DNA of 49,534 nt from Gammaproteobacteria bacterium (lineage in GTDB: Bacteria > Pseudomonadota > Gammaproteobacteria > S012-40): positions 1 to 49,534 of the forward strand of contig JAOUJM010000009.1 in the NCBI GenBank assembly GCA_029883265.1, in the 5' to 3' direction. Below, piece after piece: positions 7,758 to 46,369 of the stretch. How positions within the stretch are numbered: position 1 is the first letter of the stretch; each line of letters begins with the position of its first letter. Position numbers and translations under genes: made by a program. Under the pieces are notes generated by a model. That model was not told where the DNA came from. It saw only the letters and a program-made list of their open reading frames with translations, and searched no databases.

Positions 7758-7767
7758 AGGCAGGAAA

Positions 7768-16339: not shown

Positions 16340-16369
16340 GGCGCTATTGTAATGCAGGTTAGTCCAGAA

Positions 16370-16726: not shown

Positions 16727-17076
16727 GAAGCACGCATCAAGGTCTCAATCCAACGTAAACCCTCTGCGGGTGAGCACGACACTGGCAAGGAAATTACACA
16801 ACCGTTAGGAAGATCAATCCGAATCATCTCGTTGGATGAGGCTGGAGACACCGGCACCGTCTCCAACTTAGCCGGAACAAACAAAGCCGAGGTCTTGGCC
16901 AGTTTCTTCTCCCACTTAAAAAACGTCGCCGCTGAAAGTCCGTGATGCTTGCAATAACCGGTTTTAGTCAAACCACTTTGCTTTAACGCATCCATATGCG
17001 CCTGCCAATACTCAGGGCCTTTGCTTCGTTTATGGGTGCGAATGTTTTTGATGGATGAATGAGTGAGATCGCTCAT
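16714..17076 (-). CDS. IS66 Orf1 (TnpA-like HTH accessory protein)
   Basis: YWQAHMDALKQSGLTKTGYCKHHGLSAATFFKWEKKL matches IS66 orf1. Confidence 0.8.
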   Translation of the reverse strand: MSDLTHSSIKNIRTHKRSKGPEYWQAHMDALKQSGLTKTGYCKHHGLSAATFFKWEKKLAKTSALFVPAKLETVPVSPASSNEMIRIDLPNGCVISLPVSCSPAEGLRWIETLMRASCSN

Positions 17077-18444: not shown

Positions 18445-18523
18445 ATTCGTAAATATATTGTATCCCTCGACTTTTTTTCTCAAGGATCCATCTACGAATA
18501 CCAACGAATGTTAATAATTATCA

Positions 18524-18555
18524 GCAACTCCCCCCAATTGGGGGGAGTTGCTGTC
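18524..18555. terminator. perfect 14-bp-stem palindrome (CAGCAACTCCCCCC-AATT-GGGGGGAGTTGCTG), likely bidirectional terminator
   Basis: Seen directly; followed by T-rich tctgtagatttt. Confidence 0.5.
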
Positions 18556-20858: not shown

Positions 20859-21015
20859 ATTATTAATGCATTGCCTAGTGTATAGGGTCCCCAGCAGTAG
20901 TACGACACGAAGTCGCTTAGTTAAATGTTTCAACGGTCTGAGGCCCGGATGAAGCCTGTTGTTCCGACAGCAGTTCCCTACTTGGACAGGCGATCTTGAC
21001 AACGAGATGGTGACC

Positions 21016-21054
21016 TATACCCCATTTCTCGGACAGAGAAATGGGGTATAGGTC
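21016..21054. repeat. perfect 17-bp-stem hairpin (CCTATACCCCATTTCTC ggaca GAGAAATGGGGTATAGG)
   Basis: Seen directly in intergenic region between OMP gene and fic. Confidence 0.5.
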
Positions 21055-21185
21055 ATAGGGATAACTACGATCGCCCACATGGCTCGGTGCGTGGGGTTGC
21101 TTGTGATTTTATGGTGACACAGAGTTTTGAACAACCCCCCCTAGAATAAACACTATATTCGAATCATAATACCCTTGTATTTGAT

Positions 21186-22328
21186 TTGATTAAACACTAT
21201 ATTCAAATCATGAAATACAATTGGCAGCAACCAGACTGGACCGATTTTAACTACGATATCAAAGGCGTACAGGATATTTTGTTTGCTTTTGCTGAAAAGA
21301 CCGGACAAGTCAACGGTATCATGAAAAGCCTTCCTGGCACGATTCAAACCGATGCGGTCATCGACATTATGGTCTCTGAAGCTATTAAAACATCGGCAAT
21401 TGAAGGCGAGAATCTTAGCCGTTCCGATGTCATGTCCTCCATACGCCATAATCTTGGGCTCGATGCTAGTCCTTCCCTTGCTGTGGATAGACGAGCCAAA
21501 GGTGTGGCGGATCTTATGGTCGATGTACGTCACTCGTTTCAAGATCCGCTGACCGAAGCCACACTTTTTAAATGGCACGAAATGCTGATGAGCGGCCAGC
21601 GCAGAAACTTACCGGTCGGCATGTGGCGTAGTCATAAAGAACCCATGCAAGTGATCTCCGGAGTGATTGGAAAATGGAAAGTCCATTTTGAAGCACCGCC
21701 ATCTGATCAGGTTCCGCAAGAAATGATCAGATTTATAGACTGGTTTAACAAAACTGCCCCAAGCGCGGCGGAAGAAATCAAAAATCCTGTGATACGTTCC
21801 GCGATCGCTCATTTGTATTTTGAAAGCATTCATCCATTCGAGGATGGGAATGGCCGAATTGGTCGAGCCATTTCAGAAAAAGCACTCTCTCAAGGACTGG
21901 GCCGCCCCACCCTATTAAGTCTTTCCGACGCAATCGAAACAAAGAAGAAAGACTACTACAGCGCCTTAATGAATGCTCAAAAGTCTAATGAGATTACCCA
22001 CTGGATTAAATATTTTTCAACCACTGTACTTAGCGCTCAGATGATGGCGGAAGAAAAAATCGAGTTTATTCTTAATAAAACTAAATTCCTTGATCACTTC
22101 AAAGACCAGCTGAATGATCGTCAATTAAAAGTGATTCATCGAATGTTCGATGCAGGGGTACCAGGCTTTGACGGTGGAATGACACAAAAAAAATATGTCG
22201 CAATAACCAAAACATCAACTGCCACAGCGACTCGTGATCTAAAATATCTAGCCGACATCGGTGCGCTAAAACAAGTCGGCGGTGGTCGCAGTACCCGGTA
22301 TGAGATTGATTTCTGTTTTAATCGATAG
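21186..22328 (+). CDS. fic: Fic/DOC family protein (putative AMPylase)
   Basis: Canonical Fic motif HPFEDGNGRIGR within 380-aa protein; C-terminal winged-helix-like tail. Confidence 0.8.
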   Translation: MIKHYIQIMKYNWQQPDWTDFNYDIKGVQDILFAFAEKTGQVNGIMKSLPGTIQTDAVIDIMVSEAIKTSAIEGENLSRSDVMSSIRHNLGLDASPSLAVDRRAKGVADLMVDVRHSFQDPLTEATLFKWHEMLMSGQRRNLPVGMWRSHKEPMQVISGVIGKWKVHFEAPPSDQVPQEMIRFIDWFNKTAPSAAEEIKNPVIRSAIAHLYFESIHPFEDGNGRIGRAISEKALSQGLGRPTLLSLSDAIETKKKDYYSALMNAQKSNEITHWIKYFSTTVLSAQMMAEEKIEFILNKTKFLDHFKDQLNDRQLKVIHRMFDAGVPGFDGGMTQKKYVAITKTSTATATRDLKYLADIGALKQVGGGRSTRYEIDFCFNR

Positions 22329-25642: not shown

Positions 25643-26869
25643 TTAACCTTTTACACAGACCACTTGTTTCAATGTATGAACCACCTCAACCAAGTCGGAC
25701 TGCGCCGCCATCACTTTGTCTATATCTTTATATGCAGCGGGCGTTTCATCGATCACACTTTTATCTTTACGACATTCCACACCGTGAGTGGCCTTCACAT
25801 GATCATCCAGACTAAAACGTTTTTTCGCTTCAGTGCGTGAATGCACCCGTCCAGCACCATGACTACAACTGCAAAAACTCTCGGCATTACCTTTGCCTTT
25901 CACAATGTAACTACGCGCACCCATTGAACCAGGAATAATCCCATACTCTCCGACCCCGGCACGCACGGCACCTTTGCGTGTGACATACACGTCCTCACCA
26001 AAATGATGTTCCACTGCCACATAATTGTGATGACAATTCACTGCCATGACTTTGGCTTGAAAACTCATGGGCAAGGTCTCACGTAAGGCCATCATAACGC
26101 GATCCATCATCACTTCTCGATTCTTCGCGGCATACGCCTGAGCCCAATGCACCGCTTGCACATAATCGTCAAAATACTCTGTGCCTTCATTCAAATATGC
26201 GAGATCACGATCCGGCAAATTTAGAATATGATGGCCCATATCTTTTTTTGCCAACTCGATAAAATAACTCCCTATGCGATTACCCACACCTCGAGAACCA
26301 CTGTGTAACATCACCCAGACATCATCTTGCTCATCCATACACACTTCGATAAAATGATTCCCGGTGCCCAAGGTGCCAAGGTGATTCACATGATTCGCTT
26401 TCGCGACCTTAGGATGTTTCTCGGCAATACGATCAAATGCATCAGCTAAGCTTGCCCATGCTTGGGATACCCGCGCGGGAATATAATGCCAGGCACCACG
26501 ATCATTACGGCCGCCGCCTTTAGTACGCCCATGCGGTACCGCCGCTTCAATGGCTGTACGCACACCGGCTAAGTTGTCTGGCAAGCGTTTTCCTTTAAGT
26601 GAGGTTTTCACTGCCATCATGCCGCAACCAATATCCACCCCCACCGCAGCTGGAATAATTGCACCGACCGTTGGAATCACCGAACCCACAGTGGCGCCTT
26701 TACCCACATGCACATCGGGCATCGCAGCTACCCAGCCATGCACAAACGGTAGCCGCGCGATATTTTGTAACTGTTGTTGCGCATTCGCATCAAACAGCAC
26801 ACCATCGGTCCAGGCTTTTATGTGCACGGCCTGTTCATCACCGATAACGTTATACGTTTTCATAGTCAT
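25643..26869 (-). CDS. rtcB: RtcB-family RNA 3'-phosphate/2',3'-cyclic phosphate ligase
   Basis: 408 aa; hallmark blocks MPDVHVGKGATVGSVIP, NCHHNYV and CSCSHGAGR (catalytic His region). Confidence 0.85.
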   Translation of the reverse strand: MTMKTYNVIGDEQAVHIKAWTDGVLFDANAQQQLQNIARLPFVHGWVAAMPDVHVGKGATVGSVIPTVGAIIPAAVGVDIGCGMMAVKTSLKGKRLPDNLAGVRTAIEAAVPHGRTKGGGRNDRGAWHYIPARVSQAWASLADAFDRIAEKHPKVAKANHVNHLGTLGTGNHFIEVCMDEQDDVWVMLHSGSRGVGNRIGSYFIELAKKDMGHHILNLPDRDLAYLNEGTEYFDDYVQAVHWAQAYAAKNREVMMDRVMMALRETLPMSFQAKVMAVNCHHNYVAVEHHFGEDVYVTRKGAVRAGVGEYGIIPGSMGARSYIVKGKGNAESFCSCSHGAGRVHSRTEAKKRFSLDDHVKATHGVECRKDKSVIDETPAAYKDIDKVMAAQSDLVEVVHTLKQVVCVKG

Positions 26870-26888
26870 GCTCTTTTCCTTATCTTAT

Positions 26889-27428
26889 TCAAAACCGATT
26901 GCTCAAAAATGCCATTTGGTCGGCAAGAATGCATCGATTTCTCAGTGTTAACCACTCCGCATAATTCGGTGTATACGGCACACCGTGTAATGTCATATTC
27001 GCTTCATCGGGCGTGCGGTCTGCTTTTCTCTCATTACATACCCGACATGCTGATACCACATTGGTCCACACATTCGCACCACCCCTTGATAGCGGCATCA
27101 CATGATCCCGCGTCAGTTTGGAATCGGGTAATGATGCTAGACAATACATACATAAATGCCCATCCCGACGGAACAACTCACGGTTATTCAATGGGGGTAT
27201 CATCGTATAACGATTGACACCGTTAACCCCGCGACATGCAAGAATAGAATTGATTGCAATCCGCGAGCGTTGGCCCGTTAACCGATTTCGGCCACCATTG
27301 ATCCACAAGTGTTCATTACCAGCGATCCAAACAACTTTATCGTTCACTAATAACAATGCCGCAGTTTGCCAAGGCATCCACCCCAAGGGTTGGCCCGCAA
27401 TATCCAGTCGCAAAATTAGATGCGTCAT
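26889..27428 (-). CDS. HNH endonuclease (McrA-like)
   Basis: HNH motif CMYCLASLPDSKLTRDHVMPLSRGGANVWTNVVSACRVCNERKADRTP (C-x2-C...H...N...C-x2-C). Confidence 0.75.
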   Translation of the reverse strand: MTHLILRLDIAGQPLGWMPWQTAALLLVNDKVVWIAGNEHLWINGGRNRLTGQRSRIAINSILACRGVNGVNRYTMIPPLNNRELFRRDGHLCMYCLASLPDSKLTRDHVMPLSRGGANVWTNVVSACRVCNERKADRTPDEANMTLHGVPYTPNYAEWLTLRNRCILADQMAFLSNRF

Positions 27429-32497: not shown

Positions 32498-32677
32498 ATC
32501 ATCGTCTCAATTCGTAGTAAAGCGTGTATATTGACATATGTATTTGAGTGAAACAGCCTTTAATATCGGAAATCCTAAACAAAATTCTAAATTGATCCAT
32601 TGCTTTTGGGAATTTCACGCAGGATACTAGATATTATAATGGTTTTGTTTTTCTATGTTCAACTGTAGTAGCTCAGA

Positions 32678-33846
32678 CCCGATCTGACAGTTACCCGTTT
32701 TTTAAGATGCCTGTCAGTTTAGATTTGAGCTATATTTTTTTCCACCCAAATCTTTTTCCCGTCAAGTAAAGTTGCTTGGGGTGTTTTCCCAAGACATTTC
32801 TTACCTTGATGGGTTCGTTCATTGTTATAGTATTCGATCCATTCGTCCAGATCTTTTTGCAAGTCCTCCATGGTTGAGTATAGTTTTTTCCGAAATGTAA
32901 TCTGATAAAATTCGTTTAAGATCGTTTTGTGAAAACGTTCGCAGATCCCATTAGTCTGCGGTGACATGGCTTTTGTCTTGGTGTGGTCAATGTCATTAAT
33001 CGCTAAATACAATTGATAATCATGCTGTTCCACGCGACCACAATATTCCGTCCCACGATCCGTCAAGATTCGTAGCATGGGGAGTTTATGGCTTTCAAAA
33101 TACGGCAGGACTTTGTCATTGAGTAAGTCGGCAGCTGTTATCGGTGTCTTCGACGTGTAGAGCTTGGCAAAGGCCACTTTACTATACGTGTCGACAAAAG
33201 TTTGTTGATAGATGCGATCGACTCCCTTGAGGTTGCCGACATAAAAGGTGTCTTGCGACCCCAGATAGCCTGGGTGCTGCGTTTCTATCTCGCCACTGAC
33301 TTCATCATCATGCTTTTTCTTTTCCAATGCAGCGACCTGTGCATCGCTGAGAATGATGCCGTCCTTCGCTACTTTTTCCTCAAGTGCTTTCAGCCGCTTT
33401 TTGAAATTCTCAAGATTGTGACGCAACCAAACGGAACGCACACCACTACCAGAAACAAAAACGCCTTGTTTGCGCAACTCATTGCTAGTGCGGTGTTGGC
33501 CATGGGCAGGCTGCTCAATCGCATAGGTGATGACCGCTTGTTCAACCACCTCGTCAACTCGATTTTTGTGATTTGGGACACGTCGATTCTTGTCAACTAA
33601 AGCGTCGATCCCACCGTCTTCCACGAGCTCTTGATAGCGATAAAACGTGTCCCGAGACACGCCCATTACTTTACAGGCTTTGGAAACATTACCTAATTCT
33701 TCCGCCAAATTGAGTAATCCGGCTTTGTGTTTAATAATAGGATTGTTAGTATGTATCATTGAGAGTTACCTTTTGTTTTGAAATAAAGATTCGACACCTT
33801 TATCAAAACGGGTAACTCTCTTCTTGTCAATTCGAAGTGTCAGATC
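32678..33846 (-). mobile_element. IS481-family insertion sequence
   Basis: Single transposase gene flanked by imperfect IRs gatctgaca...gttacccgtttt (32681-32701) and reverse complement at 33805-33846 (right IR carries a 21-bp insertion). Confidence 0.7.
32719..33759 (-). CDS. IS481-family DDE transposase (rve integrase core)
   Basis: N-terminal HTH (KACKVMGVSRDTFYRYQ), DDE/rve region ILTDRGTEY...NGICERFHKT...YNNERTHQG. Confidence 0.85.
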   Translation of the reverse strand: MIHTNNPIIKHKAGLLNLAEELGNVSKACKVMGVSRDTFYRYQELVEDGGIDALVDKNRRVPNHKNRVDEVVEQAVITYAIEQPAHGQHRTSNELRKQGVFVSGSGVRSVWLRHNLENFKKRLKALEEKVAKDGIILSDAQVAALEKKKHDDEVSGEIETQHPGYLGSQDTFYVGNLKGVDRIYQQTFVDTYSKVAFAKLYTSKTPITAADLLNDKVLPYFESHKLPMLRILTDRGTEYCGRVEQHDYQLYLAINDIDHTKTKAMSPQTNGICERFHKTILNEFYQITFRKKLYSTMEDLQKDLDEWIEYYNNERTHQGKKCLGKTPQATLLDGKKIWVEKNIAQI

Positions 33847-34495
33847 AAGTCGGAACTAATTCAGTTCAACAGAAAAAAAAGCTAATAATCTGGGATAATA
33901 ATTGTAGTGGCGAAAATCAATAATCTGCGCCTGCTCGTCCAATGATAGTGCATCTTTTGAATTGTATGATCAAAAATTTGCACAAATGAACTGCACCCAT
34001 TTACTTGTAGTTTAACGTGTTTTTCTCCGTCCGAGAAAAGGAGTATAGTTCAGATTGTTTTGAATAAATTAGCTTGAATAGTTTTTTGTCAAAATTTACC
34101 GAATCCTGTAAAAGTATCGAAAATATTTTTTAACTTTTATTACTAACATAGCTCACGAAGTGTTGCTTTTTATAGCAATAGCGCATGAAAAAATAATTAT
34201 ACAATTGCAGTTAGAACAAATAGAAAACCAGCTCTGCGGTTAGTAATTAGCAAGTTGATTCTGAGCTCTTTCTTTGCCAAACATTTTTTTTGATTCAATG
34301 TATCTTGCTGCAATCTGAGGGTTGCTCGAAATTCATGCAAAATTCGCCAATAAGTAACGTAAGGGAGTCATTCTAAATGTAGTTTTCCAGCAAAATATTT
34401 CTAATCATGTTTGCTGTTAACATAAACGCCTCATCACTAGGTCCAGTAAGTTTTGTGCGATCTTAACGGGTCACGTTGGAATCCCGCGCAACCCT

Positions 34496-37400
34496 CCTCT
34501 AAATCGTTGGGGACCCTACTTTGGGGTGCTAGGGACATATCGTCCGCACGTAACAATTATCGCTACAGCCCCTGTCACATATAGAGTCTAGAGGGGCTTC
34601 AATTTCAAAAATTTCAATACCGTCGTTTACTTTAAGGTATTATTGGGCCTTTTGGACAATTTATGGCCTTCAAAGAACGGCTCACCATTCTTCTCGAACC
34701 CAAAATCAGGGATCTTTACCGTGTCCCGGTATTATCACTTGAGCAAAAACGAGTGTGTTTTGCATTAAACGATCTCGAACTGACTTGCATAGCAACCATA
34801 AGAGACAGAAATCAAAAGTGTTTTGCGATTGCACTCCTTGGATACTTCAAGGTAAAACCAATTACACTTAATCCCCGGTTTGGTGATGTGCAATCTGATC
34901 TATTTTTCATTGCAAAGGAATATTTTCCCAAGTTTAGTGTTCCGCGTTTTAGTGTAAATCGAATGCAGAGAGTGCGGCTATATCAAAAAGTTCTCGATGT
35001 ATTGGGTTTCAAAAACTGGGCTACTTCCAATGAACTCGAATTATTTAAGCATTTGAAATCAATTGCCAACTCTTGCATTGAACCACGTTATCTTTTCGAT
35101 GCTGGTATTGAATACCTTGCTCAAAAACATATTGCTAGCCCAAAATATACCGTACTTCAACAGATAATCAGTAAAGTAATTACTGCTGAGAAACAGCAAA
35201 TCGACACGATGCTAAAAACAGTAATGCCCCCTAGTTTATCGACTGCACTGAATGAGCAGATCTTTAGTGATACGTCGACCACTTTACGTGATGTTCGTCG
35301 GTCAGCCAAAAGCTTTACACCGGCAGAGCTGGAAAAAGAACTCAAAACTTATGATCATATTTGTTCATGGGTGGACGATATTGACCTGATTAGTGGGCAA
35401 CTAAATCTATCAATTAAGAATCAGCAACACTTTGCATCCATGGTTGATTATTACACTTTAACCAAGCTAAAGCGCTTTGATCGCGGGACTCAACAACTTT
35501 ATTTGATTTGCTATTTGCAGGAGCGACATCAACTTATCGTAGAACACCTGGCTGATGGTTTTATCTATCATACTCGTAAGCTCTGTGAGCAAGCCAAAAT
35601 TTATGCAAAAGAAACAGCCTACCTGGATTGGCAAGGTGCGGCTTCGAATGTGGGTAAAGCTGCAGATCTGTTACGCTTCTTTATCGATGATGATATTGAC
35701 GGCACACTGCCTTTTGAAACCGTGCGGGAGCAAGCTCAAGATTTATTAAAAGCGAGGGACATTGAATCATTGTGCCTGTATTTATCAAAACAAAAACGAG
35801 CCTTGGATGATTATGTTTGGGAATACTATGATCAGAAGACGGATCTAATTGAACGTCTATTACGACCGATTTTTTTATCTTTGGAATTCCAAGCATCAAC
35901 AACAACTCAAACCTTAGCATCACAAATTGCAGTATCCCAACGGGAACTCCAAACCTCACAATCACTCCTTACTTTCGATCGTCGATTGATACGCCCAAAA
36001 CAGCAGCCATATGTAGTGATTGATAATAGTGTCAATGAAAACCGATTTGAAATCCTGCTATATCTTATGGTGCAAAGTAAGCTAGACGGTCAGCTCTACA
36101 TACCGAACGCCATAAAATATCGCGCACTGCAGGATGATCTGATCAGTGACGAGGTATGGAAAGGCAAGAAAAAACTGATTAAAAACTCGATGCTGCCGCG
36201 CATCGATACTGCACCCAAAAAACTCATGGGCACGATGAACAAGACGCTCTCAAAAAAGCTAAATGATGTCAGCGAACGGATTGAGAATGGTGATAATGAG
36301 AATGTCATCTTGCGCAACCGAAGCGGCAAGACTCAATGGCGACTACCCTCGACGGGCGCAAAAAGCATGCTCAATAATCCATTTTTTGAACAATTGAAAC
36401 CAGTCAACATTGCCGACCTATTGCGACTTATAGATAAAGAAACTGGCTACCTAGCATGTTTTGAACACGTGCGACAAATTCAGACTGATCAGCGTTTTTA
36501 TGTAAATGACTTGCTAGCCGCTATAATCGGTAACGGAACCAATTACGGTATTTATGGCATGGCCAGTATTTCAGATCGCAGTTATGAACAGCTGCGAACA
36601 ACCCAAGCTAACTACCTCCGTCCTGAAACGCTTAATCAAGCGAACGACACCATTAATAATGGCATCGCTAATCTTGAAATCTTCAAGCACTACAATATTC
36701 AAGAAGGCTTGGTCCACGCCAGTGCTGATGGCCAAAAGTTTGAGTCGCGCTTAGAAACGTTTAAAACGCGATACTCATCGAAGTACTTCGGCACCAACAA
36801 AGGCGTTTCCGCACTGACACTCATAGCCAACCATGCGGCTCTGAATGCAAGAGTGACTGGATCGAACGAACATGAACCTCACTACATCTTTGACTTGCTT
36901 TATAACAACACATCTGAGATCAAACCAGACGTTTTATCGACAGATACGCACGGCGTAAACCATGTGAACTTTGCACTCTTAGATCTGTTTGGATACACCT
37001 TTGCTCCAAGGTATGCGCAATTTGGTAAAGTGATTGAAGATATGTTTGTCATCAATGAGAAAGACAATCAGAAACCAATGCTGTCACTAAAAAAACCAAT
37101 CAATACTCAGCTGATCGAGCAAGAATGGGAAACGATCCAACGAATCATCATTTCTTTACAACGAAAAACAATGACACAAGCAACGCTAGTGCGGAAACTT
37201 TCAGGTTACAGTAAAAATCATCCTTTACTACAGGCATTAACGGAATACAATCGGATGATCAAAGCCATGTACATCCTGGATTATATCGATGATGCTAGCT
37301 TGCGAAGGTATGTGCAACGCGCACTGAATCGTGGAGAAGCCTATCACCAACTACGCCGTGCGATTGCTTCAGTAAATGGAAACCGATTCAGAGGCTCATC

Positions 37401-37770
37401 GGATTATGAAATCGAACTTTGGAACGAATGTGCCAGGCTATTGACCAATGCTATCATCTATTTCAACTCCCTAATCCTAAACCACTTGCTCATTTATTTT
37501 GCAGACAACGGCGATGAAGAAAAACTCGAACTAACAAAAATGGTATCACCAGTAGCCTGGTATAATATAAATCTGAACGGAACATACAGTTTCAGCTTTG
37601 AACAAAACTTGCTCGATATTATAGAAATTATGAAACCATTGACTGAAAATCAGGAAAAAGGAAATTGAAGGGGCTCTGTAAGCTATGGATACCAAGGGCT
37701 GTAGCGATAATTGTTACATGCGGACGATATGTCCCTTGTACCCCAAGTAGGGGCCTCAAGAATTTAGAGG
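34496..37770 (+). mobile_element. Tn3-family single-gene transposable element with long (~110-bp, imperfect) terminal inverted repeats
   Basis: 34496-34606 is reverse-complement of 37661-37770 (core GGGGTGCTAGGGACATATCGTCCGCACGTAACAATTATCGCTACAGCCCC nearly perfect); right IR overlaps tnpA stop; no resolvase or cargo. Confidence 0.75.
34663..37668 (+). CDS. tnpA: Tn3-family transposase TnpA
   Basis: 1001 aa; C-terminal Tn3 signature VLSTDTHGVNHVNFALLDLFGYTFAPRYAQFG (DTHG...F-PR) and overall size typical of Tn3 TnpA. Confidence 0.8.
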   Translation: MAFKERLTILLEPKIRDLYRVPVLSLEQKRVCFALNDLELTCIATIRDRNQKCFAIALLGYFKVKPITLNPRFGDVQSDLFFIAKEYFPKFSVPRFSVNRMQRVRLYQKVLDVLGFKNWATSNELELFKHLKSIANSCIEPRYLFDAGIEYLAQKHIASPKYTVLQQIISKVITAEKQQIDTMLKTVMPPSLSTALNEQIFSDTSTTLRDVRRSAKSFTPAELEKELKTYDHICSWVDDIDLISGQLNLSIKNQQHFASMVDYYTLTKLKRFDRGTQQLYLICYLQERHQLIVEHLADGFIYHTRKLCEQAKIYAKETAYLDWQGAASNVGKAADLLRFFIDDDIDGTLPFETVREQAQDLLKARDIESLCLYLSKQKRALDDYVWEYYDQKTDLIERLLRPIFLSLEFQASTTTQTLASQIAVSQRELQTSQSLLTFDRRLIRPKQQPYVVIDNSVNENRFEILLYLMVQSKLDGQLYIPNAIKYRALQDDLISDEVWKGKKKLIKNSMLPRIDTAPKKLMGTMNKTLSKKLNDVSERIENGDNENVILRNRSGKTQWRLPSTGAKSMLNNPFFEQLKPVNIADLLRLIDKETGYLACFEHVRQIQTDQRFYVNDLLAAIIGNGTNYGIYGMASISDRSYEQLRTTQANYLRPETLNQANDTINNGIANLEIFKHYNIQEGLVHASADGQKFESRLETFKTRYSSKYFGTNKGVSALTLIANHAALNARVTGSNEHEPHYIFDLLYNNTSEIKPDVLSTDTHGVNHVNFALLDLFGYTFAPRYAQFGKVIEDMFVINEKDNQKPMLSLKKPINTQLIEQEWETIQRIIISLQRKTMTQATLVRKLSGYSKNHPLLQALTEYNRMIKAMYILDYIDDASLRRYVQRALNRGEAYHQLRRAIASVNGNRFRGSSDYEIELWNECARLLTNAIIYFNSLILNHLLIYFADNGDEEKLELTKMVSPVAWYNINLNGTYSFSFEQNLLDIIEIMKPLTENQEKGN

Positions 37771-37858: not shown

Positions 37859-38605
37859 TTACATATCCTCATCGAGACCTGATTGAAATTGTAGTTCTCT
37901 ACGGATTTTTTCTAAAGCAGCTTGATGTAGGTGGGACACACGGCTTCTGCTTACATTTAGTTGGTTTGCAATATCACTAAAGTCCATGTGTTGGTAATAA
38001 TGTGATTTAATGACAGTTTGTTCTTGTTCAGACAGATCTTCTAGCACTGATTGAATTTTGTCGCTCATTTCCATCATGTATTTGCTTTGATAGACACATG
38101 CTGAGGGTTGCTGCTGTGTTGAAGTGTGATGCGCATATGCATCTAGAAGACTGGTCAATGCTAAATTGATTGTCTGGGCCGCCACATCTGAGAAAGATTG
38201 AATGGTATTATTTTCTGACGTCTCAGTTTCAATTTTCAATGCATCTATGCGATCCTTCATGTATTTGTGCTGATAGGCTTGTTGTGAGCGTTGCTCCGTC
38301 AGCTTTCCGAGACCATTGAGAATCGACCCGCGTATACGGTGAGATGCAAAAGTATTAAACGCAATTCCGCGCGACGGATCGAAACGATCAATCGCTTCGA
38401 TGAGTCCGATGAGACCGAGTTGTTTGTAGTCAGAAAACTCTACATTGTTATCGATTCGTTTTGCATAGCATTGCGAAGCGACAATTTTCGCTAACTCATC
38501 ATAGTGTTGAATTAATTGGTCACGCGCTAACATCGATTGATCGCCTTTAAAAGCTTGCCATAGTGCTTGTTCTGATTGTTTGTGATTGGCACTTTTGTTG
38601 GTCAT
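37859..38605 (-). CDS. fliA: flagellar sigma factor FliA (sigma-28)
   Basis: Sigma-70 region 2 LIGLIEAIDRFDPSRGIAFNTFASHRIRGSILN and region 4 HTH QTVIKSHYYQHMDFSDIANQLNVSRSRVSHLHQAALEKIR. Confidence 0.8.
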   Translation of the reverse strand: MTNKSANHKQSEQALWQAFKGDQSMLARDQLIQHYDELAKIVASQCYAKRIDNNVEFSDYKQLGLIGLIEAIDRFDPSRGIAFNTFASHRIRGSILNGLGKLTEQRSQQAYQHKYMKDRIDALKIETETSENNTIQSFSDVAAQTINLALTSLLDAYAHHTSTQQQPSACVYQSKYMMEMSDKIQSVLEDLSEQEQTVIKSHYYQHMDFSDIANQLNVSRSRVSHLHQAALEKIRRELQFQSGLDEDM

Positions 38606-38624
38606 GTTTGATATTATCTCATGG

Positions 38625-39416
38625 TTAATGAAAACTACCCATTAGTGCACCGGTCACAACATTCCAACCATCAATTAACACAAACATTAAAATTTTGATC
38701 GGAAGTGAAATCATCATCGGCGGAACCATCATCATACCCATTGACATCAAGATACTTGCGACAATCATGTCGATCATCAAAAACGGGAGGAAAATTACAA
38801 ATCCAATCTGGAAAGCCGTCTTGAGTTCGCTGAGCATGAACGCCGGGATAAGTAAAAAATTGGAAATATCATCTAAGGTTTTTGGAACCTCGGTTTTTGA
38901 TATTTCAACCATCAACATCAAGTCCTGTTCACGTGTTTGCCTGATCATGAATTTCCGTAAGGGCGTCATTGCTTGTTCTGCAGCTTCTTCGGTTTCTATC
39001 TTGCCATCTAAAAAGGGCGTGATGGCATGTTGATGCATATCCTTAAAAACAGGTAGCATGGTAAACACCGTTAAAAATAGCGCCAAACTAATCAGCACAG
39101 AATTGGGCGGGGTTTGTTGCATGCCGAGTGCGTGACGCAACATTGAAAAAACAATAATAATTCGTGTGAAAGAGGTCATTACAACAATGATAGATGGCGC
39201 TAAACTTAATACTGTCATTACCAGTAGTATTTTGAACGCAGTTGCAACAGGCTTAGAATCTGATTGATTGTTTATGTCGATAGAAATGCCAGGCAAATTG
39301 ATATCCGCACCGAAACCTAGACAGGGTGCCAATGTGATCAAAATCAGCAATATAAACAAATATGGTTTCATGACTCGTGTATTTTTATTCACGAGAGTTT
39401 GTGTCCTGTTTATCAA
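38625..39416 (-). CDS. fliP: flagellar export apparatus protein FliP
   Basis: Signal peptide then conserved FliP TM blocks; C-terminus PIKILMFVLIDGWNVVTGALMGSF. Confidence 0.85.
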   Translation of the reverse strand: MINRTQTLVNKNTRVMKPYLFILLILITLAPCLGFGADINLPGISIDINNQSDSKPVATAFKILLVMTVLSLAPSIIVVMTSFTRIIIVFSMLRHALGMQQTPPNSVLISLALFLTVFTMLPVFKDMHQHAITPFLDGKIETEEAAEQAMTPLRKFMIRQTREQDLMLMVEISKTEVPKTLDDISNFLLIPAFMLSELKTAFQIGFVIFLPFLMIDMIVASILMSMGMMMVPPMMISLPIKILMFVLIDGWNVVTGALMGSFH

Positions 39417-39795
39417 TCACGACTACCGTATCGCCACTTTGAGCGAGCAAATATTCGTTGCGGCCAGTAGAGATGGTTATGAGCGTGGTCCGAGTTGTGA
39501 TTCGAGTTGAATCCAATATTTTTATTTTATTTTTTTTGTCCGGTGTAATGGCTGGCATAAGTCGACTTCGAAGAAAATATAAACCTGCATAAGCAAGTGC
39601 GAGAAGAATGATTAAAACAAACGCAACTTTCACAATGTAACCCGTGGTAATAACAGGATCGGTTTGCTTAAAGGGAATTGTGGTAGCGATGGTTGGCGGT
39701 TCATTGGAACTCACTACCGAGTTGTTATCGGTATATGCTGCCGGACTACAACAAACGATGATTAGCGTCGCTATGCCATGTCGCAGCCATTTCAT
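39385..39795 (-). CDS. fliO: flagellar protein FliO
   Basis: Single-TM ~135-aa protein between fliN and fliP; ORF track start 39828, likely start MKWL at 39795. Confidence 0.55.
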   Translation of the reverse strand: MKWLRHGIATLIIVCCSPAAYTDNNSVVSSNEPPTIATTIPFKQTDPVITTGYIVKVAFVLIILLALAYAGLYFLRSRLMPAITPDKKNKIKILDSTRITTRTTLITISTGRNEYLLAQSGDTVVVIDKQDTNSRE

Positions 39796-40109
39796 TTTGA
39801 GTCTTTTGGTTTGATTTCGGAAATACAAACGCCAAAACTATCATCGACGACGACTAAACTACCTCGTGCGATGACCTCACCATCCAATACAATATCAATA
39901 GGATCATCAATATCTCTATCAAGTTTTAATACAGAATTCTCTGCTAGTTGATAAAGGTCTGAAACAGATAGATCAGAGTGCCCAAGGATCGCATCGAGTT
40001 TTATTTTCACATTTTTAATGAGTGAGAAACCATCACTAAAAATGGCATTACCGGTTTGTTCACTCTCACCAATTTCTTCTAGTGTTGTTTTTTTAATTGC
40101 CATGAGCAA
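39792..40109 (-). CDS. fliN: flagellar motor switch protein FliN (short)
   Basis: SpoA domain DIVLDGEVIARGSLVVVDDSFGVCISEI. Confidence 0.75.
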   Translation of the reverse strand: MLMAIKKTTLEEIGESEQTGNAIFSDGFSLIKNVKIKLDAILGHSDLSVSDLYQLAENSVLKLDRDIDDPIDIVLDGEVIARGSLVVVDDSFGVCISEIKPKDSK

Positions 40110-40130
40110 TAACCCATATCCCTATTTTGG

Positions 40131-40937
40131 TTATTTACCTAGTAGCTTCATTGCTTTTTGTCCTTGTCTGGCACCAAGCGTCGCACAAATTGTTACAAAG
40201 TTATCGGCAACACCCAACAAAACTTGATTACTAATCGGATTATCGAGTTTAATCACATCGCCAACTTGGATGTGTTGAATATCTTCGAGTGAAAGATTTG
40301 CTGTACCCAGTTGTAGACATAGCCGAATGGTTTGATGCTGAATCGCTTCATTTAACGATTTCAATGGGGGCATCACGCGATGTGGATCGACGTCTTTGAT
40401 CGGCGTCAAATGACGTGTTAAATAGGGGCCCACATAAAACGTATATAGTGGTTGTTGTTGATGATGTACATCTATCTTAACCAGTCCATTACTATAAAGA
40501 CATGCGAAGTCGCTGTTTGAATTATCGAATGCTATGCCCGATGGATGTTGATCCGGATAAACTAGACGTCGGACTAAATCATCGAGCAATGAAATCAACA
40601 TTTTCTCGGTGATAGCGCCAGTGGGTGCAACAACTTTCGAGGTTGTGGGCCCATACGTTGGCAAAATGGTTGTCAGTAAGGAAAATAAATTTTCTTCATT
40701 TTGGATTGAGACATAACACCAATGATCGGCCTGATCAGGGCAATATCGATAACTTTTTGCTGATTGCAGGTCTTCCTCAACCGCTGCGATGGGAATGAGC
40801 TGTGCAGCCTGGACCTCAACCGAACTGAAGGCCCAATGTTGTGACCACCTAGCCAGCGCAAGTGACGCAAGCTCGTCAAGTCGTAATAAATGGCGTTTTC
40901 CTAGTAGTAAGTTGGGCTTAAAATCCATTTTTTTCAA
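40131..40937 (-). CDS. fliM: flagellar motor switch protein FliM-like (short, divergent)
   Basis: 268 aa; C-terminal SpoA-like segment VGDVIKLDNPISNQVLLGVADNFVTICATLG; position between flgE and fliN. Confidence 0.5.
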   Translation of the reverse strand: MKKMDFKPNLLLGKRHLLRLDELASLALARWSQHWAFSSVEVQAAQLIPIAAVEEDLQSAKSYRYCPDQADHWCYVSIQNEENLFSLLTTILPTYGPTTSKVVAPTGAITEKMLISLLDDLVRRLVYPDQHPSGIAFDNSNSDFACLYSNGLVKIDVHHQQQPLYTFYVGPYLTRHLTPIKDVDPHRVMPPLKSLNEAIQHQTIRLCLQLGTANLSLEDIQHIQVGDVIKLDNPISNQVLLGVADNFVTICATLGARQGQKAMKLLGK

Positions 40938-40944
40938 TTCCAGT

Positions 40945-42153
40945 TTAGCGGCCCTTTGCCATATCTAATAGCTGCTGAATCATCTCATTTGCTGTGGTTA
41001 GAATCTGAGATGATGCTTGATAACCACGTTGAATAATTATCATATCGGTAAATTGTTGAGTAAGTTCAACATTAGATGACTCAATTCCACCCGCGACCAA
41101 TTTGCCCATCCCTTGGAGGTTGGCGTAACCCAATGTAGGCGATTGTCCGTTAACGGCTTCAAAACGGCTGTTGCTCAATCGTTTTAAGCTCTGCAAGCTA
41201 TCAAAGTTTGCGATTGCTAAACGATCAAACTGACGACTTTGCCCATTAGAATAATTTACTGAAATATTCCCATCTTCATCAAAGGTCAGGGTTGTCTGAG
41301 AACCCAACTGATGACCATCGGCGCTATCGACGGAAAGAGTTGAAACCGTACCTTCAATAAAACCGGTGGAACCGACAAACGTACCGTCCGCACCAAAATC
41401 AAGCGTGACGTTACTGCTGGCGACCCCACTCGGCGAAAAGGCGAAATTTACCGAATTGAATCCTGCTTCCGGTGAACCGTTACCTTGATAGCGAATTTCT
41501 CCGCCTGCTAATAAGATATTGCCAAATTGATCTTCTACATCAATCAGCCAACTCCGTGGCGTAACAGCATTATTGTTGGTGAATGTCATTCGAAGTTGAT
41601 GTTGACCACCATCACTATCAAACACGTTAATGTTATTGACCACATGCGAACTCGATCCGATTGATAAATTGTTGGTGAATTGGATGATGCTTGTGGCACT
41701 CGGTGGATCAATTCGGTATTGCTTGACGTTTATTTTTGACAAACTACCGTTTGAGAGCCCCATCACATAGCTATTGGCGACCTTCGAAATGAGATAACCA
41801 TCGTCATCAACCTCAAACTGACCGGCGCGTGTGTAATAAGTATGTTGGCCATCACGTAGCACAAAAAAACCATTGCCATCCAATGCAACATCGGTGTCAT
41901 TTCCTGTATTTTGTATATCGCCTTGACCAAAAAAGGTCGTTGTCTGATTGGCTTGTACACCATTTCCAATCTGCTGACTGGCATAGTTTCCCTGACTCCC
42001 GGCCAAGCGATATTGATAAATCAAGTCATTAAATAGCAAATCGTTACCTTTATATCCTGGCGTATTGAGATTCGCAATATTGTCACTGAGCACGTCGAGG
42101 CCTTTTGAAAAAGACAACATACCCGAAAGGCCGCTATAGACTGATGTAAACAT
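40945..42153 (-). CDS. flgE: flagellar hook protein FlgE
   Basis: N-terminal flagellar rod/hook motif SGLSGMLSFSKGLDVLSDNIANLNTPGYK, C-terminal conserved helix; 402 aa; downstream of flgD. Confidence 0.8.
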   Translation of the reverse strand: MFTSVYSGLSGMLSFSKGLDVLSDNIANLNTPGYKGNDLLFNDLIYQYRLAGSQGNYASQQIGNGVQANQTTTFFGQGDIQNTGNDTDVALDGNGFFVLRDGQHTYYTRAGQFEVDDDGYLISKVANSYVMGLSNGSLSKINVKQYRIDPPSATSIIQFTNNLSIGSSSHVVNNINVFDSDGGQHQLRMTFTNNNAVTPRSWLIDVEDQFGNILLAGGEIRYQGNGSPEAGFNSVNFAFSPSGVASSNVTLDFGADGTFVGSTGFIEGTVSTLSVDSADGHQLGSQTTLTFDEDGNISVNYSNGQSRQFDRLAIANFDSLQSLKRLSNSRFEAVNGQSPTLGYANLQGMGKLVAGGIESSNVELTQQFTDMIIIQRGYQASSQILTTANEMIQQLLDMAKGR

Positions 42154-42170
42154 ATGACTACCCCAACGAA

Positions 42171-42578
42171 TTATCGAACAATCAGAATTTGTGACAAGCT
42201 AATATCAGACAAAAATGCGCCAAAGGAATTTTGCACGGTCAAACGCGGGATGCCATTTTCGAAACTCACCGACGATACGGTACCTAGTTGTTGTCCAGCC
42301 GCGGTGGTCACTTCAACCGTTTTTCCAATCAAGTTGATCGACTGATTACTTGCTTGAAATGACAATAGTGCATCCATTTTCTCATTCATTTGTCGATTCA
42401 GTTCAAGATTGGTAAATTGCGCTAGTTTTGCGATGAACTCCTGATTATCCATCGGCTTTAACGGATCTTGATAACTTAACTGTGACAGCATGATTTTAAA
42501 TAAATCTTCTTGCCCAACATTCGTATTCTGAACGGAGTTTGTTGCTGCGGAGACATTCCCAATCGATTCAGTTGCCAT
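42171..42578 (-). CDS. flgD: flagellar hook capping protein FlgD
   Basis: N-terminal motif DLFKIMLSQLSYQDPLKPMDNQEFIAKLAQFTNLE. Confidence 0.75.
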   Translation of the reverse strand: MATESIGNVSAATNSVQNTNVGQEDLFKIMLSQLSYQDPLKPMDNQEFIAKLAQFTNLELNRQMNEKMDALLSFQASNQSINLIGKTVEVTTAAGQQLGTVSSVSFENGIPRLTVQNSFGAFLSDISLSQILIVR

Positions 42579-42618
42579 GTTTACCTCCTAGATAGTCTTT
42601 ACCAATCAACTCAACAGC

Positions 42619-43266
42619 CTACTTTGATGTATGACCATTTAGCGTAAATGATTTAATTTTGATGCCCATTTTTTTGAAATAACTCATTACGCTTGTCTTG
42701 AGTTTTTCAAGTAGATGTGGTGTTTGCAATGTGGTACGCATGAGTATTTGTGCTTGTTGTTGATCAATGTGTATTGCAATAGTTGATGCCGGTGATGGAT
42801 GCCGTGTTTGCGGCTGATTGAAATCGATGCTTGCTAGTCGACTTGGCAACGATTTGCTGTGTTTTGTCGTTTGCAATAATGTTGGCCAGTGTGCAGTGGA
42901 TACGGTAGTGCCGGGTTGCGGCTGCATATGGTTGTGTGTAGCTGCGTAAGCGACACGCGTTAGTAGCGGTTTGTCATGGTGATTGGCGAGTGCTGTAAAT
43001 GTTGGCTTGTGGTTTGTTGCAACCAAGGGTTGTACCGATACCTTCAATGGTGTTAGTTGAACGGACTCAGCGGTGACGCGTGTTTTCGGTAGTGGATTAG
43101 ATCCTTCAGTTGCCTTGCCTTGATTAAGGTGAGTCTGCTCCAGGCGTATACGTAATGCTTGCTCAAACTCTACACCGGTTTGGCTGCGCTGTTGTTGCTT
43201 CATCGGCACAAGAATGTGCTGTATATTGAATTCGGTTTTCATCGCCCTCTCCTGGTAAGCAGCCAA
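42619..43266 (-). CDS. fliK: putative hook-length control protein FliK
   Basis: Pro/Gln/Thr-rich 215-aa protein between fliJ and flgD with C-terminal domain ...IAIHIDQQQAQILMRTTLQTPHLLEKLK. Confidence 0.45.
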   Translation of the reverse strand: MAAYQERAMKTEFNIQHILVPMKQQQRSQTGVEFEQALRIRLEQTHLNQGKATEGSNPLPKTRVTAESVQLTPLKVSVQPLVATNHKPTFTALANHHDKPLLTRVAYAATHNHMQPQPGTTVSTAHWPTLLQTTKHSKSLPSRLASIDFNQPQTRHPSPASTIAIHIDQQQAQILMRTTLQTPHLLEKLKTSVMSYFKKMGIKIKSFTLNGHTSK

Positions 43267-43712
43267 AGCTCATCCATTTGCTTAGTGAGTTGTTTCTCCT
43301 GATGTAGCGACGCTTGGCGATGGTTTTTTTCTTTCAGGTTTTCGAACGACTTGATTTCAATTAGCGCTTGATTCAGATGTTTGATCACCTGATTAAGGCG
43401 TTCGTCCACCTGCAATTTTTCGGCTTCGGTTCGCTCCAATTCATCGATTAGGTCCAGCAGATATTCGCGCTGTAACAAGTATTCTGTCATATCGAATTGT
43501 TCATTATGTTGTGCATAACGTTGTATATCGTCTCGAATCACGTCAATTTGCTGAAGGGTTTTTTCAATTAATTGTTCATAGTGTTGTTGCTCTTGGCGAA
43601 CCGTGGCATATTCATGGCGACGGTCTTCAAGATGTATGGTATGTTTTTTGATGACCGATTCGAGCGTAGTTGCTTTTTTTACGTAATTTCTACTCATTTT
43701 AGTTTTCCCCAA
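43239..43712 (-). CDS. fliJ: flagellar export chaperone FliJ
   Basis: ~155-aa coiled-coil protein immediately downstream of fliI. Confidence 0.6.
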   Translation of the reverse strand: MGKTKMSRNYVKKATTLESVIKKHTIHLEDRRHEYATVRQEQQHYEQLIEKTLQQIDVIRDDIQRYAQHNEQFDMTEYLLQREYLLDLIDELERTEAEKLQVDERLNQVIKHLNQALIEIKSFENLKEKNHRQASLHQEKQLTKQMDELWLLTRRGR

Positions 43713-45009
43713 AAAGTTTTTGCATCGTTGTTATATTGGTATCTTCACTAATTCGCTCATGAAGTTGCTGGGTTAGAAAATGCTTCAATTCTGGTACGCG
43801 TTTAATTGCCTCATCAATATCCTGATTGCTACCGTGCTGATAGGCGCCTATATCAATCATGTCCTTGGCATTCATATAGTCACTCATCGCTTTCAAACCT
43901 TTTTGCACCAATGTTTGTTGTGATTCGCCAATCAGTTGATTAATGAGTCGACTATTACTTTGTAGGATATCGATAGCCGGAAAGTGGCCTTGCTGAGCGA
44001 GCTCACGGGTTAAAACAATATGCCCATCCAATATTGAGCGAATGCTGTCAGCAATCGGATCATTTACATCATCGCCTTCGACTAATACGGTGTACAAGGC
44101 GGTTATCGAACCACCATTCACACTTGTTCCCCCGCGTTCGAGTAATCGAGGTAACATTGCAAATACCGATGGTGTATAACCGCGAGCCGTGGGTGGCTCG
44201 CCAATTGCGAGTCCGATTTCGCGCTGTGCCATCGCATATCGAGTAATCGAGTCCATGGTTAATAGCACATCTCGTCCTTGATCCCGAAAATATTCAGCAA
44301 TCGCCGTGGCGGCAAAGACGGCATGTGAACGCACGAGCGCGGGCTGATCGGAGGTGGCGACGATTACCACGGATCGCGCTAAGCCTTCCCCACCAAGTGA
44401 TTGTTCAATGAATTCCAAGACTTCTCTGCCGCGCTCACCAATTAATGCAATAACGTTCACATGGGCTTTGGTATTTCGTGCTAACATACCAAGCAACGTA
44501 CTTTTACCGACGCCACTTCCTGAGAAAATACCGATACGTTGTCCTTTGCCTAAAGTTAAAAACGTGTCGATTGCGCGAATCCCGGTCTCCAATTTTTCGC
44601 TTATGCGCGGCCGATTAAGCGGGTTCATCGGATTCGCATAATGAGGATAATGCTCGTTAATGTTTGTCAACGGTAGTCCGTCGAGCGGTTCACCAAATCC
44701 ATCAATTACCCGTCCTAATAGTGCCTCTCCCACGGCAACTTGGGCTGCTTTACCGGTACCGACCACTTCACTGCCTAATTGAATTCCCGTCATATCACCA
44801 TATGCCATCAATAAGACACGGCCGTTTTTGATGCCGACCACTTCTGCTGGAATCGGCTTCGCTTGAGTTTTTATGTAGATTTCACAACGCTCACCTAAAA
44901 ACACATTGGGTCCATCCGACTCAATGACCAGACCGAAAAACTGTGTGACCGTTCCGATCTCACGCACAAAATCCATCGCCTTAACTGCAAGTCGCATCGC
45001 ATCTGTCAT
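43699..45009 (-). CDS. fliI: flagellum-specific ATPase FliI
   Basis: Walker A GIFSGSGVGKST, Walker B region RDVLLTMDSITR, F1/T3SS ATPase architecture; 436 aa. Confidence 0.9.
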   Translation of the reverse strand: MTDAMRLAVKAMDFVREIGTVTQFFGLVIESDGPNVFLGERCEIYIKTQAKPIPAEVVGIKNGRVLLMAYGDMTGIQLGSEVVGTGKAAQVAVGEALLGRVIDGFGEPLDGLPLTNINEHYPHYANPMNPLNRPRISEKLETGIRAIDTFLTLGKGQRIGIFSGSGVGKSTLLGMLARNTKAHVNVIALIGERGREVLEFIEQSLGGEGLARSVVIVATSDQPALVRSHAVFAATAIAEYFRDQGRDVLLTMDSITRYAMAQREIGLAIGEPPTARGYTPSVFAMLPRLLERGGTSVNGGSITALYTVLVEGDDVNDPIADSIRSILDGHIVLTRELAQQGHFPAIDILQSNSRLINQLIGESQQTLVQKGLKAMSDYMNAKDMIDIGAYQHGSNQDIDEAIKRVPELKHFLTQQLHERISEDTNITTMQKLFGEN

Positions 45010-45016
45010 AACACTA

Positions 45017-45847
45017 CTACTTTTTCTCGGACCTTAATTGTTTAGCATTCATGAGTACTTCGACAAAACGTTGATATTGAGTTTCCAGTCGGCCATCAAT
45101 GGTGTGTAGCGGCGATTCCAATATGCAGCCGCCGAGTTGTACTTTGGCATCCGCTTGTATTGATATATTCGGACTTGACTTAAGGCGATCTAATTTGTCT
45201 TTATGATGCTCAACGATATCAAAATCATCCGGATTAACCCGTACGACAAGATTATCGAGTTGTTTTGCGTGGGTAATTGTCTCTTTGATCATTGCAAGAA
45301 TCCCCTTCTCGGTGATCAATTGCTTACCCAGAATTTTTTGAACGGCTGTTAAAACAATATCAATTACCGCATCTTCTTCATGTTCGATGAGGTCTTGGTA
45401 TGCGTGGTTAACACTTTCAAGTAATGTTAGAAACGTCTGTATGAGCTCAGACCACTCTTCACTCGCCGCTTGTTCACCGGCTTGATAGCCATCTTGATAG
45501 CCCGATTGGAGTGTTGCTTCATTACTATTTTCAATCGCTTGCTGCTGATTCTGTAGTTGCTCTTGGAGCTGTTCTACCGTTTGTTCTAATCCTGCGTTTT
45601 CATTGGTTAGTTGTTCAAGTTTCGCTGACAATTCTTGTCTTTGTTGTACCTGTAATTCTGCTTGGTGCGTCGTCTGTTCGTTCGTCGATTGATCGTTCGT
45701 TACAAAAGATGGATCCAATTCAACAGGTGTAGGTGGCCCGGATTGTTCAGCATCCACTTCTTCTGACTTAATCATACTTTCAGCATCGGCCTGTGAAATC
45801 ACATGGGTGTCCGATACCAGTGGTGGTGACTTAATTACTTCTGCCAT
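45017..45847 (-). CDS. fliH: flagellar assembly protein FliH
   Basis: Gln/Glu-rich coiled coil followed by FliH C-terminal domain; directly upstream of fliI. Confidence 0.65.
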   Translation of the reverse strand: MAEVIKSPPLVSDTHVISQADAESMIKSEEVDAEQSGPPTPVELDPSFVTNDQSTNEQTTHQAELQVQQRQELSAKLEQLTNENAGLEQTVEQLQEQLQNQQQAIENSNEATLQSGYQDGYQAGEQAASEEWSELIQTFLTLLESVNHAYQDLIEHEEDAVIDIVLTAVQKILGKQLITEKGILAMIKETITHAKQLDNLVVRVNPDDFDIVEHHKDKLDRLKSSPNISIQADAKVQLGGCILESPLHTIDGRLETQYQRFVEVLMNAKQLRSEKK

Positions 45848-45865
45848 TCAACACCTTCTATTCGA

Positions 45866-46369
45866 TTAGCCTAGCGCAGTCTTAATATAATCCCTGTGTA
45901 AGTTGTTCGCTGTTGAGTCCTGTTGAGCGTCAGCCTGATACTGTTCCAGTAAATGGGTGAACATCATAATCACCACATTGGGTTGTGGGCGAGTCGATGA
46001 TGTATCGATGCGGTTAATCAATTTCAATTGGTCAATAATAGTTTGTTTCCAAGACCAATCATAATAATGAACAATTGCATTGACGATTAGCATACTCTCC
46101 CGTCCAAACACTTGCTTGAGTCTATCCGGGGCGAGTCCATCAACAATTGAGCACAGTGTTTTCAATGTTAAGGTTTGTCCTAGATGCTCAGGTAATAAGT
46201 GAGCATAGTTTTCGACAACGTATTCTCGTGGAACTGCAAGATGATCTAATTCTTCTAAGTTTACTTCGACTTGAAAGCGCATCGCTTCTGGTACACGTTT
46301 TAACAACCAATGTCGATCACTTGAATCCATCAAATACAAAATGAGTGAAATTTGTTTTGAGATATCCAT
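45866..46369 (-). CDS. short FliG-like protein (167 aa; about half normal FliG length)
   Basis: Occupies fliG position between fliF and fliH; N-terminal ISLILYLMDSSDRHWLLKRVPEAMRFQVEVNLEEL loosely resembles FliG N-domain; no canonical C-terminal torque helix recognised. Confidence 0.35.
   Translation of the reverse strand: MDISKQISLILYLMDSSDRHWLLKRVPEAMRFQVEVNLEELDHLAVPREYVVENYAHLLPEHLGQTLTLKTLCSIVDGLAPDRLKQVFGRESMLIVNAIVHYYDWSWKQTIIDQLKLINRIDTSSTRPQPNVVIMMFTHLLEQYQADAQQDSTANNLHRDYIKTALG

Follow-up and report, generated by a model that had tools for sequence, protein, structure and literature searches.

A 49,534-nt stretch of DNA that makes up a whole contig in the metagenome-assembled genome (MAG) of an uncultured gammaproteobacterium (assembly GCA_029883265.1, contig JAOUJM010000009.1; the whole stretch is referred to here as the window) carries at positions 34523–37744 a mobile element that a first-pass annotation of the sequence had described as a minimal Tn3-family transposon with unusually long inverted repeats (IRs), inserted beside a flagellar gene cluster and possibly disrupting it. 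Our analysis makes it very probable that this is one copy of a tnpA-only, resolvase-less Tn3-family insertion sequence (IS) of an ISKox2-like clade, that it landed beyond an intact flagellar cluster, and that the mirror-image sequences on either side of it are host DNA. Delimited tip to tip by comparison with relatives, the element is 3222 bp long and its sole gene is tnpA (34663–37668, + strand), which encodes a transposase of 1001 amino acids.

TnpA has the size of the large (~1000 aa) DDE transposases that typify the Tn3 family and is recognized as one by profile searches: it matches the full DDE_Tnp_Tn3 profile of Pfam (PF01526, 1.5e-123), has a DUF4158 match (PF13700, 4.9e-24) over its N-terminal DNA-binding region, and scores 801 bits against the NCBIfam model transpos_Tn3 (NF033527; cutoff 500). 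The motif residues DGQK, DTHG and FAPR are located at positions 689, 761 and 780 respectively. Apart from tnpA there is no open reading frame (ORF) of at least 100 aa between the IRs, and the ORFs of 62–94 aa all fall within the tnpA coding region. Profiles, motifs and ORF scan therefore bear out the original description of a Tn3-family element that has a 1001-aa TnpA with a DTHG...FAPR signature and neither resolvase nor cargo. The resolvase (TnpR, TnpI or TnpS/T) and res site by which members of the family are also defined are absent; as no gene besides tnpA lies between the IRs, the element was placed in the resolvase-less, IS-like subset of the family. Resolvase-less derivatives such as ISVsa19, ISShfr9, ISBusp1 and IS1071 'resemble simple bacterial ISs' (PMC4337579).

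The IRs are longer than the 38 bp that is the minimum for the family and open with the expected GGGG tip. The left repeat (IRL, 34523–34606, + strand) and the right repeat (IRR, 37661–37744, - strand) are each 84 nt in length, with tips at 34523 and, on the minus strand, at 37744; these limits were drawn from alignment of the two ends with each other and from an alignment of 10 ends of four elements. The repeats are bipartite, with IRL and IRR identical at 46 of 49 positions (94%) over nt 1–49, at 12 of 25 (48%) over nt 50–74, and at all 10 positions of an inner box (nt 75–84) that reads CTTCAATTTC in both. The terminal ~49 nt begin GGGGT and hold the sequence GTAACA..ATCGC. The first-pass annotation had also noted that the right IR overlaps the tnpA stop codon, and this is the case: the stop (37666–37668) lies within IRR, the inner end of which is at 37661, and the last 8 nt of tnpA are shared with the repeat. 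The same overlap is found in relatives, for example in relative locus L014, where 77 nt separate the stop from the end of the contig or element.

When the ends are aligned with gaps over a longer range (34496–34606 against 37770–37661; arms of 111 and 110 nt), 90 of 111 positions are identical (81%) with one indel, and the alignment score of 115 far exceeds that of 500 shuffles (17.2 ± 2.1, maximum 26). The long imperfect inverted similarity originally reported between 34496–34606 and 37661–37770 is thus real. It had been taken to represent IRs of ~110 bp and to be unusual in its length. The repeats are indeed far longer than 38 bp, but the functional IR is ~84 bp, relatives ending at their GGGG tips; and such a length is not out of the ordinary, given that ~84–85 nt is normal for the clade and that the family includes TnXax1 with 92-bp IRs (PMC4337579) and IS1071 with 110-bp IRs (PMC4739549). 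A length of '38 to 40 bp or sometimes even longer' has in any case been given for Tn3-family IRs (PMC7157771).

The true ends are defined by related elements, in all of which (TnpA identities of 78%, 65% and 53% among them) homology and contig ends stop at a GGGG tip equivalent to window positions 34523 and 37744. An element with 65% TnpA identity (P0008) was retrieved from ten places, and at least six left contexts and three right contexts diverge exactly at GGGG, 140 nt before the ATG; the distance from the left tip at 34523 to the tnpA ATG in the window is likewise 140 nt. The same tip bounds the relative with 78% TnpA identity (P0002) in three metagenome loci, ISKox2 in seven plasmids, and two further elements. 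In the 10-end alignment, invariant columns occur only from (T)GGGG inward, over ~84 nt, and outside the tips nothing is conserved except the two flanks of the window copy with each other. Contigs carrying the relatives are often 3198–3220 bp in length, matching the tip-to-tip distance, as is characteristic of a repeat that has collapsed to element length. Further, ISKox2 in Aliivibrio wodanis pAWOD_2 is bordered by a clean 5-bp duplication (TTCAT) flush with its GGGG tips. A metagenome scan for the inner IR returned three loci, all of the 78% relative and all ending at GGGG, and among the loci retrieved for comparison the inner IR pattern matched only the same locus and one relative. As the relatives all end at GGGG, the element was delimited as 34523–37744 with 84-nt IRs. 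For annotation the lesson is that IR similarity can overrun the true tip, and that a comparison of copies, not self-alignment, should decide where the ends are placed.

The nearest annotated relative is ISKox2 ('Tn3-like element ISKox2 family transposase', WP_008126957), which together with an Acinetobacter relative gave the top annotated plasmid matches of TnpA. ISKox2 has a single tnpA of ~1000 aa in a 3.2-kb element (3211 bp versus 3222 bp here); the tip GGGGT.CT.GGGA and the box GTAACA...ATCGC; bipartite IRs with 43 perfect positions, 80% identical overall across 85 nt; an ATG ~140 nt from the tip; and a stop codon inside IRR. By TnpA identity and IR alignment, the window element groups with this clade in its transposase, its IR boxes and its geometry. 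The two differ in that their TnpA proteins are 53% identical over 998 aa; in that ISKox2 resides on plasmids of Enterobacterales, Vibrionaceae and Pseudomonas, whereas the window copy is located beside housekeeping-type genes of an uncultured gammaproteobacterium; and in the mirror-image flanks and missing duplication, which belong to the window copy.

Closer relatives were found in metagenomes: P0002 at 78% TnpA identity; P0008, P0009, P0018 and P0037 at 64–66%; and many others at 60–66%, in part from marine sulfur-oxidising symbionts such as Candidatus Thiodiazotropha (P0019). These share the architecture, tip, IR length and leader length of the window element but are without the outer 27-nt mirror flanks, and their two IRs are more alike (~95% identity over 85 nt in the P0008 element). 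They are present in multiple copies in several contexts, indicating that the clade is mobile. No TnpA more than 78% identical to that of the window was found, and on these protein comparisons the element is a divergent addition to the ISKox2-like resolvase-less Tn3-family ISs, which is of little importance beyond annotation. Judged from the aligned ends, bipartite IRs of ~84 bp are a trait of the whole clade. One copy of the 78% relative (Ga0316204_10026165, positions 1940–4495; L019) measures only 2556 bp from tip to tip and is an internally deleted derivative.

Two long-IR members of the family were also compared. IS1071 (M65135, using the copy extracted from pADP-1) likewise belongs to the Tn3 family and has tnpA as its only gene; its very long IRs open with GGGG, and the stop codon falls near or within IRR. 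Its TnpA, however, is only ~20% identical to that of the window (best segment 225 aa), and its IRs, 106–110 nt in length against 84 nt here, have no similarity to those of the window element beyond GGGGT. Membership of the IS1071 group was rejected on these grounds, and IS1071 serves as a precedent rather than a close relative. TnXax1, of the Tn4651 subgroup, resembles the element in having long IRs, but has a TnpS/TnpT resolvase, passenger genes and a GAGGG tip.

By analogy with what is known of the family, TnpA would bind the terminal part of both IRs and nick at the GGGG tips, which would then be joined to the target by replicative strand transfer to give cointegrates; with no resolvase, these would presumably be resolved by homologous recombination of the host. 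The terminal ~49 nt of each IR would correspond to the cleavage tip and TnpA-binding region of Tn3-family IRs, and the inner 10-nt box beyond the variable spacer may serve as a second site for TnpA or as one for a host factor. Insertion was into a non-coding stretch 114 nt past a sigma factor gene, and probably split a hairpin at its apex.

That last step concerns the sequences immediately outside the tips. The left outer flank (34496–34522, 27 nt) and the right outer flank (37745–37770, 26 nt) mirror each other as inverted repeats (22/27), the two arms differing at four positions plus an indel over 27 nt. Joined, they include the sequence CCCTACTTTAAGTAGGGG and form a 53-nt imperfect palindrome with the element at its exact centre, CTTTAAG; this palindrome folds with a dG of -18 kcal/mol as DNA (z -5.85) and -28.7 as RNA. 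In an anchored test of flank symmetry the window copy scored 13.5, whereas none of 240 mismatched control pairs exceeded their maximum of 5.5; the other 15 copies scored 0–2, except for ISKox2 in pRVS1-224, which was borderline at 6.0. The outer flank sequence was absent around all relatives and found only around the window copy, where it is the same in five independent assemblies and so is not an assembly artefact. Within the window, the outer 24-nt sequence had no further match with up to three mismatches allowed, and viral contigs gave no match to the junction. An origin as the end of the neighbouring IS481-family element was ruled out, as the IRs of the latter (32648–32692 and 33835–33879) are unrelated. 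From the comparison with relatives, we infer that the outer 26–27 nt are flanking host DNA, outside the mobile unit.

Several observations weigh against this account of an ISKox2-like IS inserted into host DNA. The 5-bp target duplication of the Tn3 family, which ISKox2 displays in pAWOD_2, is lacking in the window copy both at the tips (ACTTT versus AAGTA) and at the outer edges (ACCCT versus CATAA); the search for duplications and for other copies proposed in the first-pass annotation thus yielded no duplication at either boundary and no second copy in the material searched. Insertion into a palindrome in the canonical way, with 5 bp duplicated, was considered and rejected, since none of the possible duplications agrees with the flanks as they stand, and insertion at the apex would duplicate TTTAA, which is not seen. 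A clean duplication was present in just one of 16 relatives with both flanks, which makes the flanks noisy as evidence in this clade and could reflect chimeric metagenome assemblies or recombination between copies. There was no empty site either: look-up of the exact sigma factor and TnpA proteins gave only element-bearing contigs, and the pre-insertion sequence is thus a reconstruction. The nearest sigma factor homologues are at most 37% identical, and DNA-level comparison of the site is therefore impossible. Finally, no consensus promoter of sigma-70 type for tnpA was detected in the 140-nt leader, and a promoter and terminator scan of 33850–34700 returned nothing relevant. Recombination or intramolecular events commonly leave a single copy without its target duplication, and its absence here does not therefore exclude membership of the Tn3 family.

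Given the continuity of the inverted similarity, which crosses the GGGG tips without a break and at ~81% identity as in the inner IR, and the lack of a duplication at those tips, we considered whether the element truly ends at 34496 and 37770 with functional IRs of ~110 bp, for which IS1071 provides a precedent in the family. However, the outer 27 nt are missing from all relatives, including the one that is 78% identical; the outer ends begin CCTC instead of the family GGGG tip; the outer edges lack a duplication as well, while that of ISKox2 sits at its GGGG tips; and no second copy with the extension occurs in the window, in the loci retrieved for comparison or in viral contigs. With the IS1071 transposase and IRs as distant as described above, this proposal is largely refuted and we regard it as very improbable. 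Our preferred guess is instead that the outer flanks are the arms of a native terminator-like hairpin following the sigma factor gene, which the element split at its apex. Circumstantial support comes from perfect hairpins of 16–20 bp elsewhere in the window, 78–153 nt past gene ends, and from a strong hairpin after the sigma factor gene in a Woeseiaceae relative. The joined centre CTTTAAG is also compatible with CTnnnAG, the weak target consensus of Tn4430, whose insertion preference is shifted by pseudo-palindromes (bioRxiv 10.64898/2026.05.30.728999). Hairpins beside the insertions of relatives are suggestive only, with 4 of 43 flanks having a z below -3 and a mean z of -0.5.

The mirror-image flanks could alternatively have arisen after insertion, if DNA synthesis that started from one IR, with the other as its template, overran the tip; break repair or replication template switching between the 84-bp arms would then have copied ~27 nt of one flank to the other side in inverted orientation, erasing the duplication and extending the IR outward. 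This would account jointly for the exact central position, the missing duplication and the similarity that continues across the tips, and a parallel may exist in the ISKox2 copy of Aliivibrio salmonicida pRVS1-224, where a borderline 12-nt symmetric flank lies between DNA of clearly different composition. On the other hand, the differences between the arms imply an old or inaccurate event and yet tnpA is intact; and of 16 copies only that of the window shows a clear signal. We consider such an origin unlikely. Somewhat more doubtful still is the proposition that the element integrated at the apex of a cruciform or hairpin palindrome without making a 5-bp duplication, in a structure-directed manner, or else that its IRs grew outward by IR-templated repair; in structure-directed integration, the transposase may have attacked hairpin loops that were extruded, or a replication fork that had stalled at the palindrome. 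If true, it would fit a recent proposal that Tn3-family transposases target replication intermediates and impediments; otherwise the mirror-image, duplication-free flanks are a small oddity.

Other copies in the clade have peculiarities of their own at the tips. The flanks of the pRVS1-224 copy of ISKox2 (L108) are mirror-like over ~12 nt (CAAGCC-TAGAT versus CAAGCCCCAGAT) without a duplication, and the DNA to its left and right differs strongly in GC; this is a weaker second case of the oddity in the window. A near-identical flank, CCC(C)A(A)GAT, occurs just outside the GGGG tip in unrelated contexts of ISKox2 (right side, L108), P0018 (right side, L115/L116) and P0008 (left side, L006), and could be a preferred target motif or a remnant of something else. 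In the 3.35-Mb genome CP099567.1 (L114) there is an 8-nt direct repeat, TTCTGTTT, at both tips (the right one offset by 1 nt) and no 5-bp duplication; a second, inverted ORF containing DUF4158 adjoins the clade element there. Within the window itself, a perfect 32-nt palindrome (18522–18553) and a 20-bp perfect hairpin (21011–21055) are located 78 and 153 nt past the upstream gene ends, respectively.

On its right-hand side the element faces a flagellar cluster, the intact last gene of which (37859–38605, - strand) encodes a sigma-70-family factor of FliA/WhiG type that falls below curated cutoffs (114 bits against TIGR02479; cutoff 189.6). The insertion had been placed 88 bp past the stop codon of this gene, designated fliA in the first-pass annotation; 88 nt is correct for the outer repeat edge at 37770, and the distance to the true tip at 37744 is 114 nt. 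On the minus strand the gene order in the window is flgI (cut by the contig end), flgB, flgC, fliE, fliF, a 167-aa ORF, fliH, fliI, fliJ, a 215-aa ORF, flgD, flgE, a fliM-like gene, fliN, fliO, fliP and the sigma factor gene. It had been suggested that fliQ, fliR and flhB are missing and that mobile elements may have broken the locus. These genes do lie outside the window, but this is because the contig ends inside flgI; Logan contig SRR7132771_298746, which is 100% identical to window positions 38553–49534 and extends further, carries fliQ-fliR-flhB-flhA-flgF-flgG-flgA-flgH-flgI directly upstream of flgB. The order flgB...fliP-sigma is kept in nine relatives, from Candidatus Thiodiazotropha (in which FliP is 67–69% identical to that of the window), Woeseiaceae, Paucimonas, Marinagarivorans and other MAGs, and in two relatives the genes after the sigma factor gene are non-flagellar (one has hydrolases and a TonB receptor there, the other TPR and contractile-injection-system genes). 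The cluster therefore natively ends with the sigma factor gene. That the Tn3-family element and the IS481-family element together truncated the locus, removing fliQ, fliR, flhB and flhA, was prompted by the absence of these genes from the window and by the presence of two mobile elements at the cluster end; with the four genes at the head of the cluster, and the relatives ending in the same way, truncation is refuted, on the very criterion that the first-pass annotation had set for it, and its likelihood is negligible. The element lies 114 nt beyond the sigma factor stop codon in a non-coding stretch, interrupts no gene and has removed nothing flagellar. With the cluster intact, no phenotype is predicted from the insertion.

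The cluster (38625–49519, - strand) has some unusual features of its own. The ORF in the position of fliG is 167 aa and has no Pfam match; the FliM-like protein is 268 aa and contains the FliMN_C domain only; and the same layout is found in Candidatus Thiodiazotropha, Woeseiaceae, Paucimonas and Hahella. It may represent a distinct secondary flagellar or flagellum-like system.

The neighbours are the same on every contig with the exact TnpA or sigma factor, and these contigs are at least 99.9% identical. This one context, and an assembly that passes through the element unbroken, suggest that the MAG has a single copy, which does not appear to be proliferating. In one population (ERZ27296354, k141_536783; L021/L023) a G>A change at 35018 converts Trp119 of TnpA to a stop codon (W119stop), with further G>A changes at 37025 and 37030. 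On the reading of this nonsense change, at least one population is losing the transposase, and the element resembles a resident copy, possibly in decay, more than one that is expanding.

The window contains three IS types within 49.5 kb: IS66, IS481 and the Tn3-family element. The IS481-family IS (32648–33879, - strand) is a separate element with a transposase gene at 32719–33759 (287 bits against NCBIfam transpos_IS481) and IRs of ~45 nt. It had been placed ~640 bp further on, in agreement with the ~643 nt that separate it from 34523 (~616 nt from 34496). The 5' end and IR of this IS are overlapped by an Rfam match to psRNA2 (RF02349; 33763–33955, + strand; E 2.7e-12) that, at 57.4 bits, does not reach the gathering score of 65, and this family of 'sRNA' (small RNA) may really be an IS end. 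The IS66-family element (14894–17076, - strand) comprises a 481-aa transposase, a TnpB_IS66 ORF and a 120-aa ORF. On the non-flagellar side of the Tn3-family element, accessory, island-like content includes a Gp49/HigB-like and HTH_37 toxin–antitoxin pair (7380–8109, + strand), a Fic/DOC protein with DUF4172 (21186–22328, + strand) and RtcB beside an HNH endonuclease (25643–27428, - strand).

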